DNA from: Patescibacteria group bacterium | GTDB lineage: Bacteria > Patescibacteriota > Minisyncoccia > Moranbacterales > JAKLHP01 | Direction of reading: 5' to 3' | Assembly (NCBI GenBank): GCA_043803385.1 | Contig: JAZDKA010000041.1 | Span: 19,799 to 83,798 of the forward strand | Length of the DNA stretch: 64,000 nucleotides | Part shown: piece after piece, positions 57,426-60,368 of the stretch | Position numbering within the stretch: position 1 is the first letter of the stretch | Layout of the letters: each line of letters opens with the position of its first letter | Made by a program: the position numbers and the translations under genes | Notes under the pieces: model-generated | The model's database searches: none | What the model was told of the DNA's origin: nothing | Seen by the model: the letters and a program-made list of their open reading frames with translations, nothing else

Positions 57426-58988
57426 CTACTTTATGCTGTTACCGGTGAGTATCGTGAATATCTTCCGGTATCTATACGCCGTTTGTTCTGACACAAATGT
57501 GGGCAACTCCGGTCCTGGATAGGTTTTATCCCAGCTTAGAGTTTCGAGGTAGTCGCGGACAGGTTGCTTGTCAAGGCTATCCTGTCCTCTTCCCACTTCG
57601 TATTTTTCCATAGACCAGAACCGGGATGAATCGGGCGTAAGCATTTCATCTATGACTATGATCTCATTATTGAGCATTCCGAACTCAAGCTTTGTGTCGG
57701 CGACGATAATTCCCCTTTCCTCGGCAAACTTCGAAGCCTCGATGTATATCTTTAAGCTCAATTCCCTTATCCTTCGCGATGTCTCGGGACATATAAGCTC
57801 GCAGAGTTCAGAAAAGGTTTTGCTTTCATCATGACCTTCTTCTACTTTCGTCGTAGGAGTAAAAATCGGCTTCGAAAGCTTTTGGGATTCTTGCAATCCT
57901 GCGGGTAATTGTATTCCGCATATCATTCCAGTCTCCTGGTAGTCCTTCCATCCGGAGCCCGCCAAATATCCACGCACGACACATTCGGCGAGAATAGGCT
58001 TTGCTTTCCATACCAGCATACTACGACCTCTTAATATATCTCGATATGAATCGCAAATCTCAGGATATTTAAAAACATCCATGGAGATAAGGTGACTGCG
58101 GATGAGATCCCTGAAAAACCAGAACCAGAAGCCCGACAACTGATTCAGGACTTTCCCTTTACTCACAATTCCTGTCGGCAATACGACATCAAATGCCGAC
58201 AGGCGATCGGTGACAACTATAAGTAACTTGTCACCGAGGTCGTAAACATCCCGCACCTTTCCTCTTTTGGGAATCCCGATATCTGTGAAATTCGTTTCTC
58301 TTAATATCTCTTCTTGTATCATATCACGCCTCCTCGCGTTTTGTTGTACATATCTGTTTTCGAGAAAGTTCGTTAGTCCTTTCTTCCTGGCTATTTCAAT
58401 GGCCATTGCCAGTGCGTCCGGAAACTTCAAGCGCATTTGGGGCTTGATTGGTTTAAGTTCAATTACCGGAAGATCTTCTTCTCTATCGTTTACAGCGTGT
58501 ATGCATGCCCGAAGAAAACCCTCAGCACCAACGTAATCCCTGAAAATAACTCTGGTTCCGGGAACGTGAATTATGCTACTGATTGCCGCTTTCGTCTTTT
58601 CAGGATCCTCATCCTCAAAAGCCACTGCATAAACTCTGATATGTGAATCTTGCAGGACGTTCCGAAGAAATGCATCATCACAGCCCGAAAGATGATTCGC
58701 CCAACCTGCGCCGACGATGAGTCTGTCAACATTAGGCACAGAAGGACGATTCTGATTTCCATTGCCGCGACCAAAAATCCTGCCACAATAGCTTCTTAGG
58801 CGATGCTGCACAGCAAGTGTATGTCTATGCTGGCTGTTTATATCGAACCACCTAAGGGATATGGAGCCTTCCATTTCTTTACTGGTTAGATAATCCAGAC
58901 CCCAAATGCATTGCGGCAAATCAGAGTCCGAACCTGTCGCCGCACCGATCCGTAATTTTTGAGGTGCTAATTGCAAGTTTGTCGCCAT
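57426..58988 (-). CDS. purEC: Fusion protein: N5-CAIR mutase (PurE-like) N-terminal domain + SAICAR synthetase (PurC) C-terminal domain
   Basis: N-terminus has [11 protein letters not shown], SQHRH and [13 protein letters not shown] (PurE signatures). C-terminal half has [25 protein letters not shown] (PurC signature). GC ~50%; preceded by GGAAGAGGAGAGATC-ATG. Confidence 0.7.
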   Translation of the reverse strand: [520 protein letters not shown]

Positions 58989-59036
58989 GATCTCTCCTCT
59001 TCCTTTTATAGTTTATTTTCGGCTTCGCGCCGAGTT

Positions 59037-60368
59037 TTATGCGACCTTGTTAAATCTTTCGAATATTTCGTCCACATACTTCAGATTCATCTCCGGATTA
59101 AAACATTCTTCGATTTCTGTGGTTGACAGCAGATTGGAGATTTCAGGGTGACTTTTGACCAGATCGCGGAAACTTTCGTCCTTAGCATTAACAAAGATTC
59201 CGCGCTGGACTGATTTTGCCAGTCCCTCCAGCAGATCATAAGCTATATCCCTGGGCATTGCCTTTTTGGTAAGAGCGATCATAAGTTGCTGGGCAAAAAC
59301 AATGCCGCCGGTTTTCCAAAGATTTCTATTCATTTGTTCAGGAAAGACCTCTAGTTTTTCCATAACAGTTGAAAAACGATCAAGCATGAAATCCAGCAGA
59401 GTTGTAGAATCCGGAATAAAGATTCTTTCCAGAGCGGAATTATCCAAAGATCTTTCGCACCAGAGATTTTCATCCTCGTTTGCCATAACGAGATAACCTC
59501 TCATTGCTTTAGCTAGTCCGCAAGTATTCTCGCTCTTAATGGGATTACGGAGAAAACTTTTTCCAGGCATGGCTGAAGAACCCTTAGCTGTATCCTTTTT
59601 ATATTCGGCAACTTCGCTTAAATCCGTTCCAGCCAAATGTCTTATTTCTGTGGCGAATCTATCCAACGAATTGGAAACACCGACCAGGCAGCTTATATAT
59701 CTGACCAGTAGATCGCGGCTTATAACTTGGTTGGAAATTTTGGCTGGTTTCAATCCGAGGAGTTTGCAAGCAATCCTTTCAATCTCGGGATTTAATGAAT
59801 ATTTTCCTACGGCTCCGGAAATCTTGCCAACTCTGATTTCTTCTCTGGCTGATCGCATTCTAGCCAGATGACGGTCCAATACATCAACCCAGTTGATTAG
59901 CTTTAAACCGAAGGTGATTGGCTCGGCATGGATAAAATGTGTCCGGCCTATCATAATTGTGTGCTTGTGCTCAAGTGCTCGGTGAAATACGACGGTCCGG
60001 AGTCTTTTGACTTGTTCGATCAGTATATCCATAGCCTCGACTAGAAGCATGGCCAATGCCGTGTCTTCAATGTCAAAAGAAGTAACTCCAGTGTGGTAAT
60101 AGATTTTGGTCGATTCATCCAGCAGTTCGGAAACTGCAAGTATAAAGGCGATCATGTCGTGGTCGCCCAATGCCTCGAGTTCATCTGCTCGCTGTAAGAT
60201 TTCCGAAGTGATGACTATTCTTTGTGCGTTTTTATAAACTATCGCGGGTATATTTTCACGCCGTGTCCTAGCCATGAGAATAGCAACCTCAACATTATGC
60301 CAGTAAGTTTTCTTTTTTAACTCTTCCCAAAGTTCCCCCATCGGTTTTCTAGTGTATCTTTCAATCAT
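59037..60368 (-). CDS. purB: Adenylosuccinate lyase
   Basis: A 443-aa fumarase/aspartase-fold protein; the conserved region includes ...GSSAMPGK... Strong SD (AAGGAGGTTATT-ATG). Confidence 0.85.
   Translation of the reverse strand: MIERYTRKPMGELWEELKKKTYWHNVEVAILMARTRRENIPAIVYKNAQRIVITSEILQRADELEALGDHDMIAFILAVSELLDESTKIYYHTGVTSFDIEDTALAMLLVEAMDILIEQVKRLRTVVFHRALEHKHTIMIGRTHFIHAEPITFGLKLINWVDVLDRHLARMRSAREEIRVGKISGAVGKYSLNPEIERIACKLLGLKPAKISNQVISRDLLVRYISCLVGVSNSLDRFATEIRHLAGTDLSEVAEYKKDTAKGSSAMPGKSFLRNPIKSENTCGLAKAMRGYLVMANEDENLWCERSLDNSALERIFIPDSTTLLDFMLDRFSTVMEKLEVFPEQMNRNLWKTGGIVFAQQLMIALTKKAMPRDIAYDLLEGLAKSVQRGIFVNAKDESFRDLVKSHPEISNLLSTTEIEECFNPEMNLKYVDEIFERFNKVA

Follow-up and report, generated by a model that had tools for sequence, protein, structure and literature searches.

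An apparently young fusion of a divergent PurE-like domain with PurC, adjoining purB, in a Patescibacteria genome

The carboxylation of 5-aminoimidazole ribonucleotide (AIR) to its 4-carboxy form (CAIR), and the onward conversion of CAIR through the succinocarboxamide ribonucleotide (SAICAR) to the carboxamide ribonucleotide (AICAR), is carried out by enzymes that come in several arrangements. Class I PurE, as in Escherichia coli, Thermotoga maritima (1o4v) and Mycobacterium tuberculosis (3lp6), is a mutase of N5-carboxyaminoimidazole ribonucleotide (N5-CAIR), for which PurK is the usual supplier, while class II PurE, as in Treponema denticola (3rg8), is an AIR carboxylase. In the animal protein PAICS (4ja0) a SAICAR synthetase is followed by an AIR carboxylase in one chain. 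At high bicarbonate, E. coli PurE can dispense with PurK in turning AIR into CAIR, and some archaea of CO2-rich habitats have a class I PurE but no PurK; for these, a non-enzymatic carboxylation of AIR has been argued (PMC3261824). Patescibacteria generally lack de novo nucleotide synthesis in published reconstructions (PMC9530719; PMC11809585). A literature search found nothing specific on prokaryotic PurE-PurC fusions, or on the PurE-like family treated here in the candidate phyla radiation. Here, we describe a locus in a stretch of 64,000 nucleotides of a Patescibacteria group bacterium (assembly GCA_043803385.1, contig JAZDKA010000041.1, positions 19,799 to 83,798; hereafter the window, in whose numbering all positions are given), where purB is followed by a single open reading frame (ORF) that joins a PurE-like domain to PurC, in the reverse of the order in animal PAICS.

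Two minus-strand ORFs fill positions 57426-60368 and would be transcribed in the order purB, fusion. They form a two-gene unit with MurJ upstream and a strong terminator before LepA downstream. The first gene, purB (59037-60368), encodes an adenylosuccinate lyase of 443 aa, and its ATG is preceded at a distance of 4 nt by the 8-mer Shine-Dalgarno sequence AAGGAGGT (60373-60380), a longer match than any other of the 60 genes in the window shows. A spacer of 48 nt (58989-59036), which carries AAGGAAGAGGAG 5' of the fusion ATG at 58988 and in which a terminator scan found no minus-strand terminator-like site, leads to the continuous fusion ORF of 520 aa (57426-58988, including the stop codon). 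This ORF consists of the PurE-like domain (residues 1-205; 58374-58988), a linker (residues 206-222; 58323-58373) and a PurC, or SAICAR synthetase, domain (residues 223-520; 57429-58322). Beginning 27 nt 3' of the fusion stop codon is an intrinsic-terminator-like hairpin whose GC-rich stem of 9 bp leads into U7 (57360-57398, minus strand). It folds with -22.2 kcal/mol (z -4.9; none of 200 shuffled sequences folds as well), and was missed by the consensus scan because its loop exceeds 8 nt. No Rfam family, purine and ZTP riboswitches included, matched in 57000-61000, and no convincing sigma-70-like promoter was seen upstream of purB. The initial annotation had reported both ORFs, the reversed domain order and a set of motifs in the fusion protein, and all of these were found again (GSDSDLP at residues 19-25, SQHRH at 52-56, further ones at 92-102 and 242-266).

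We consider it likely that this locus is a late-purine module typical of its lineage, in which purB is accompanied by a young read-through fusion of purE-like and purC genes, so that CAIR is handed on within one chain. The PurE-like domain would form CAIR, PurC would convert it to SAICAR, using aspartate and ATP, and PurB would cleave SAICAR to AICAR and fumarate and also adenylosuccinate to AMP; the three predicted activities thereby span CAIR formation, SAICAR and AICAR, which upholds the earlier proposal of an AIR-to-AICAR block. Tethering would pass the labile CAIR straight to PurC, as in animal PAICS with the domains reversed, a channelling that, like the oligomeric state of the protein, we infer.

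The identities of PurB and of the PurC half are straightforward. PurB scores 400.7 bits against the equivalog TIGR00928 (cut-off 326.2), matches Lyase_1 and ADSL_C as well, and keeps the motifs HxGxTS (as HTGVTS), GRTH and GSSAMP; it is 100% identical to the NCBI protein P0296, named 'MAG: adenylosuccinate lyase [Patescibacteria group bacterium]'. The PurC half is a standard PurC of the PRK13961 type, with 229.8 bits against Pfam SAICAR_synt (PF01259), 368.4 bits against NCBIfam NF010568 (cut-off 251; residues 230-519 covering profile positions 6-296 of 297) and 198.3 bits against the curated PurC equivalog TIGR00081 (cut-off 189.9).

The N-terminal domain is genuinely homologous to PurE, though divergent, and to judge from its sequence resembles class I. 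It has 32 relatives at 38-55% identity, all of them stand-alone proteins of 170-198 aa and, where the source is named, from Patescibacteria; 28 of the 32 carry a precomputed AIRC (PF00731) match, and fused relatives of the domain score 38-68 bits against the same family. The alignment of these relatives is strongly conserved, including S-x-HRN, and its profile matches class I PurE structures at E values from 2.7e-13 to 1e-8, in contrast to the far weaker matches to class II structures (3rg8, E 2e-4; 4ja0, E 0.23). With canonical PurE, hhalign gives a probability of 97% (E 5e-11) and aligns window residues S20/D23, H54/R55 and A94-G95...H99 with canonical S16/D19, H45/R46 and A70-G71...H75. Fold and profile-level homology both place the domain in the PurE superfamily. 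Its P-loop (G19-S-D-S-D23), 40s loop (S52-Q-H54-R55) and 70s loop (A94-G-W-A-N-H99-L-S-G102) supply the class I positions Ser16/Asp19, His45-Arg46, Gly71 and His75 as S20/D23, H54/R55, G95 and H99, whose roles are presumably those described for the PurE of E. coli and A. aceti. The class II signature, which we take to be an SAHK 40s loop with a 70s loop of the AGRSNGL type, is absent, the window having SQHR and AGWANHL. Because of the class-I-like motifs, the substrate should be N5-CAIR, supplied perhaps by the product of a purK located elsewhere in the genome, perhaps by non-enzymatic carboxylation of AIR.

An exhaustive profile search recovered 119 representatives of this PurE-like family at E<=1e-30 and 243 at E<=1e-10. 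Of 159 representatives, 123 carry S-x-H-R, and among the 134 with a readable 70s loop His75 occurs in 100, Asn74 in 96 and Trp72 in 73; a 7-aa insertion after the 70s loop (DAFLR motif) and a conserved C-terminal extension of about 35 aa are family-wide. Compared with class I PurE, the window domain accordingly has Trp72, Asn74, the 7-aa insertion, GVAFED in place of GVPV, the C-terminal extension and a 20-aa insert of its own, and its gene is linked to purC and purB, not to purK. Compared with class II PurE, the family has His-Arg rather than His-Lys and keeps His75. The same residues set the fusion apart from animal PAICS, whose domain order is reversed relative to the bacterial one and whose PurE half belongs to class II. 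The window-specific insert (residues ~67-88; 58725-58790) has no counterpart in 31 of the 32 aligned relatives, although L015 has a larger insert at the same site, and lies between helix 57-68 and strand 89-94 with a predicted local distance difference test score (pLDDT) of about 50-80. The initial annotation had suggested that large inserts in the PurE domain might affect its class I or class II specificity. We judge this unlikely, since the insert is particular to the window, disordered in the model and, from the fold topology, would sit at the N-terminal end of beta3, off the catalytic loops and away from the aligned catalytic residues.

The junction between the two domains retains a trace of two separate genes. 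Homology to PurC starts at residue 224, and Met223 (ATG at 58320-58322) aligns with Met1 (MNNELIMETNI) of P0034, the closest stand-alone PurC (65% identity over 297 aa, ungapped), while stand-alone PurE-like relatives stop near window residue 200-212. What was once the intergenic spacer is therefore read today as residues 206-222. Read codon by codon, the junction is AAC GCG AGG AGG CGT GAT ATG, in which a Shine-Dalgarno stretch AGGAGG (58329-58334; codons Arg219-Arg220), 6 nt 5' of the ATG of Met223, is embedded and translated as part of Ala-Arg-Arg-Arg-Asp. The simplest origin is a recent, in-frame fusion by read-through of a short spacer of about 50 nt, with the ribosome-binding site of purC now in the linker: the stop codon of the purE-like gene would have been lost (the CAA CAA codons of Gln215 and Gln216 would lie one substitution from TAA), and translation would have continued through the spacer into a fused product. 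PurC alone may still be translated from Met223, which would be the ancestral purC start. An AlphaFold2 model of the full-length protein has a mean pLDDT of 85.8 and a predicted TM-score (pTM) of 0.61. As in PAICS, both domains lie in one chain, a single ORF, and both are confidently folded; pLDDT falls below 50 at residues 170-193 and 208-225. The low linker pLDDT and the pTM suggest a flexible tether. Because the linker is a translated ribosome-binding site, the fusion would have arisen recently and independently of PAICS.

In the public record of this protein (MFH0969637.1; P0033) the gene is called from Met39, giving 482 aa, and named PurC only; with this start call, strand beta1 and the GSDSD P-loop are lost from public annotation. 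The stretch left out, residues 1-38 (58875-58988), is conserved with the family at residues 12-38, and a Shine-Dalgarno sequence precedes the ATG at 58988.

Fusions of the same PurE-like family with PurC occur elsewhere, none of them functionally annotated as such. In L004, a species-representative metagenome-assembled genome (MAG) of the Patescibacteria, purB stands directly upstream of a 480-aa PurE-like/PurC protein, and the same domain order is found in the metagenome proteins P0153, P0166, P0220 and P0269; the reverse, PAICS-like order, PurC then PurE-like, is found in P0275, P0280, P0282 and P0291. The PurC types of these fusions differ from that of the window fusion, being short and of the GKTK type in L004, P0153 and P0166, and the linkers are unrelated, so that these are separate events. 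The four proteins of reverse order form a distinct sub-group, with the 70s loop AGAGKAAALPG (Lys72, without His75) and the 40s loop SCHRNP. L015 was considered as a further fusion, since its matches share a frame, and was rejected because of a stop codon and a 22-nt gap.

The unit probably belongs to a fuller late-purine pathway. Pfam scans of the other 59 ORFs of the window (joined in chunks) found no other pur gene, as the initial annotation had said; a Formyl_trans_N match is Fmt beside Def. In related loci the module has more company: a purF-like amidotransferase lies near it in L001, purD in L022 and a purH fragment in L028, while L023 has the order purO-purH-purD-purB-purC. The purE-like gene adjoins purC in 30 of 39 surveyed loci, often together with purB, and the commonest families in the 144 flanking ORFs of 29 loci are SAICAR_synt (24 times), Lyase_1 (13 times), AICARFT_IMPCHas (five times) and IMP_cyclohyd (three times). 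The proposal of an isolated three-step block therefore holds within the window, but purD, purH, purO and purF-like genes near the relatives make true isolation unlikely. Since the Patescibacteria in general lack this synthesis, the module marks a subset that keeps at least the late steps. Among other nucleotide genes of the window, a 369-aa ORF (27670-28779, minus strand) resembles dihydroorotate dehydrogenase at a borderline score (E 3e-6, 27 bits, at the Pfam cut-off). Alongside PyrG (32146-33780) and a protein of the amino-acid-kinase family (29790-30527), it gives a hint of some pyrimidine metabolism.

Several observations weigh against the reading of the locus as a working late-purine module with a young fusion. 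The N-terminal domain has no match to Pfam AIRC (PF00731), either within the full protein or as an isolated domain of 234 aa, even at E<=10; a phmmer search of the PDB gave chance matches only (a tail protein, Cmr4), and Foldseek against the PDB did not recover PurE. The PurE assignment of the initial annotation, which had offered such a domain search as its check, thus fails in the direct Pfam search and stands, as class-I-like, through the family profile and hhalign. The 70s loop departs from class I in its Trp at position 72 and Asn at position 74. PurK was found neither in the 64-kb window nor in the 25-family list of neighbouring genes, where the rarest entries have 2 members and no ATP-grasp family occurs; a strict N5-CAIR mutase would then be left without its usual supplier, unless there is a purK in another part of the genome or AIR is carboxylated non-enzymatically. 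At the junction, the internal Shine-Dalgarno sequence and ATG are both intact, so that the fusion could be of very recent date or even an artefact of assembly or consensus calling. No second, independent assembly of the junction was found, the exact junction 30-mer being without a match in the metagenome collection, and a protein-based scan gave no relative above 50%. Finally, the close relatives found for each half are all unfused (L020, L027, L028, L029-L047).

How the module came to stand where it does is best approached through L020 (JGI Ga0376277_0008541), the holder of the best PurC match, which is collinear with the window: DUF4012-MurJ-purB-purE-purC-LepA-...-rotamase-HtrA-DUF5656-HtrA. 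Identity between the two is 90% for LepA, 84% for MurJ and 77% for DUF4012, but only 65% over 297 ungapped residues for PurC, despite flanks at 84-90%; the two PurC proteins are sisters in a neighbour-joining tree. Between MurJ and LepA, the purE and purB of L020 (within 6622-7989 of that contig) both differ from those of the window. The PurE there is a canonical class I enzyme (GSESD...SAHRTPE...AAGMAAHLPG) without BLAST similarity to the window domain; a canonical PurE in the same slot supports an equal role for the PurE-like domain. The purB of L020 is of another type (ASL_C) and comprises the C-terminal 261 residues of an enzyme of about 486 aa; being truncated at its 5' end, it is probably a decaying gene. 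The pur genes of L020, too, are GC-richer than their flanks. In a further locus, at L025 7346-8809, an orthologous PurB (71% identical) has beside it another PurC type and a third, extremely divergent AIRC-type gene (SCHWH...GGMQFAAPG), without the His-Arg pair and His75. The PurE slot of the module seems unusually prone to replacement or divergence.

These comparisons lend some weight to the possibility, which we hold tentatively, that the pur cassette came to lie between MurJ and LepA, or was partly replaced at that site, through exchange among Patescibacteria lineages, in which case the fusion junction might be a recombination joint. The flanking genes are closely shared with L020 while purB and purE are non-orthologous and PurC has diverged. 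The closest relatives of PurB (76-77%) lie in another genomic context, at loci with a GC content of 0.42-0.45 like that of the window pur genes, and the parts form a mosaic over the loci, with three PurE types, at least two PurC types and two PurB types. Against such an exchange, no breakpoint can be placed, the sister relationship of the PurC proteins implies that at least purC stayed in place, and the raised GC content may partly reflect protein composition. The cassette is a mosaic, an older history of exchange of pur cassettes among Patescibacteria is plausible, and our reading is of a phylum-typical module whose parts have been shuffled within the Patescibacteria, not of a recent import from outside.

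A different doubt concerns the fusion itself, which might be without physiological meaning. It could stem from a faulty assembly or consensus, or from the very recent loss of a stop codon, and the products would in effect be two proteins, a short-tailed PurE-like protein and a PurC started at Met223 from the internal AGGAGG. The perfect Shine-Dalgarno sequence and the ancestral start codon within the ORF fit this, as do the unfused state of the closest relatives of both halves and the single assembly of the junction, and in a spacer of only 17 codons an open frame by chance is not improbable. We nevertheless think it unlikely, because the same architecture arose independently in L004 and in metagenome proteins, so that such fusions are tolerated and recurrent, and because both domains are predicted to fold normally in one chain.

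We are similarly doubtful of a bolder reading, in which the PurE-like family would be a distinct third kind of PurE that makes CAIR without PurK and has co-evolved with PurC as its obligate partner. CAIR would then be formed by direct carboxylation, or from N5-CAIR arising spontaneously in CO2-rich anoxic habitats. If true, this would explain why the family is fused to PurC in either order and keeps company with purB, purH and purO, not with purK, and would mean that some ultra-small bacteria run an ATP-sparing block from AIR to inosine monophosphate (IMP), possibly fed by scavenged early intermediates.

The initial annotation had described the module as horizontally acquired, on the strength of its Shine-Dalgarno and GC signals. 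The signals are present: GC content is 0.456 for the fusion (z 1.9) and 0.426 for purB (z 1.2) against a window mean of 0.380 (sd 0.040), GC at third codon positions (GC3) has z values of 1.0-1.7 for the pur genes (1.7 for the fusion) and in the PurC domain reaches 0.498 against 0.371 +/- 0.053 (about 2.4 sd), and the pur genes have strong Shine-Dalgarno sequences in a window where a match of five or more bases precedes only 10 of 60 genes. The pur genes are thus mildly GC-richer than their surroundings. Acquisition as stated is not supported, because the named close relatives of PurB are all, and those of the PurE-like domain mostly, Patescibacteria, PurC is sister to the L020 copy and the locus is collinear. 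The PurE-like family found here comes mostly from Patescibacteria MAGs. About 75 nearest relatives of PurB lie at 50-77% identity and all named ones are Patescibacteria, the first named others being at <=46%; its clade shares the signature loop GSSAMPGKSxLRNP, as against the canonical GSSAMPHK---RNP, with GSSAMPGKSFLRNP as the window version. This sequence lies in the flexible catalytic 'SS loop' of PurB and combines a His-to-Gly change with a 3-residue insertion. The purE-like gene was also seen on contigs of two MAGs labelled 'uncultured Gammaproteobacteria' (L010, 10.9 kb; L017, 3.3 kb), for which mis-binning is the likeliest explanation given how short the contigs are.

A recent foreign island from outside the Patescibacteria, an isolated AIR-to-AICAR block in an otherwise purine-auxotrophic cell, is accordingly very unlikely. 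Apart from composition, it could draw on a PurC that is 62-66% identical to PurC of Syntrophorhabdales and 'Proteobacteria', as close as the nearest Patescibacteria copy, and on cassette contents unlike those of the collinear L020. Nearest relatives outside the host lineage, an insertion relative to L020 and mobility genes at the borders were all looked for and not found: the module fills the same slot in L020, Pfam scans detected no integrase or transposase family in the window and the flanks are housekeeping genes. The loop insertion of the PurB clade, the recurrence of the gene order across the phylum and the purD, purH, purO and purF-like genes of the relatives all count against it. For purB and the PurE-like half this origin is largely refuted. 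That the N-terminal domain is no purine enzyme at all, but a LarB-like or other carboxylase or decarboxylase or a dead scaffold, is highly improbable, given its 27% identity to class I PurE against 13% to LarB, the retained PurE P-loop, His-Arg pair and His75, the adjacency or fusion of its family to purC, purB and purH/purO with no lar genes in the 25-family list, and the canonical PurE in the same slot of L020.

Other parts of the window also stand out in composition. The strongest outliers are two adjacent ORFs of 332 and 470 aa at 43666-46087 (minus strand), with GC contents of 0.49 and 0.47 (z 2.8 and 2.3), strong Shine-Dalgarno sequences, hydrophobic N-termini and no Pfam match; one of them contains tracts rich in N/Q/S and a proline-rich PPPP stretch, and they adjoin a sortase (46579-47433) and an S/Q-repeat protein (47450-47995). 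Strong Shine-Dalgarno sequences cluster on the pur genes and on GC-richer unannotated ORFs (4850-5287, 11149-11691, 40500-40862, 53886-54248 and 54399-54941), and genes of this kind may be a class with a different history or expression.

Read as a late-purine module with a young fusion, the locus catches a gene fusion at its earliest stage: the linker still spells out the ribosome-binding site and the start codon of purC. That the same two enzymes were fused independently in animals and repeatedly in this phylum suggests that handing CAIR over to PurC is advantageous. The locus also brings to light a sizeable PurE clade, so divergent that it can escape standard Pfam searches, and as the public annotation of this gene drops the PurE-like domain, pathway reconstructions may under-count the purine genes of Patescibacteria. 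A subset of these supposedly nucleotide-auxotrophic bacteria keeps purB-purE-purC, often with purH, purO or purD, and the parts of the module have been swapped between lineages, which bears on their dependence on hosts.

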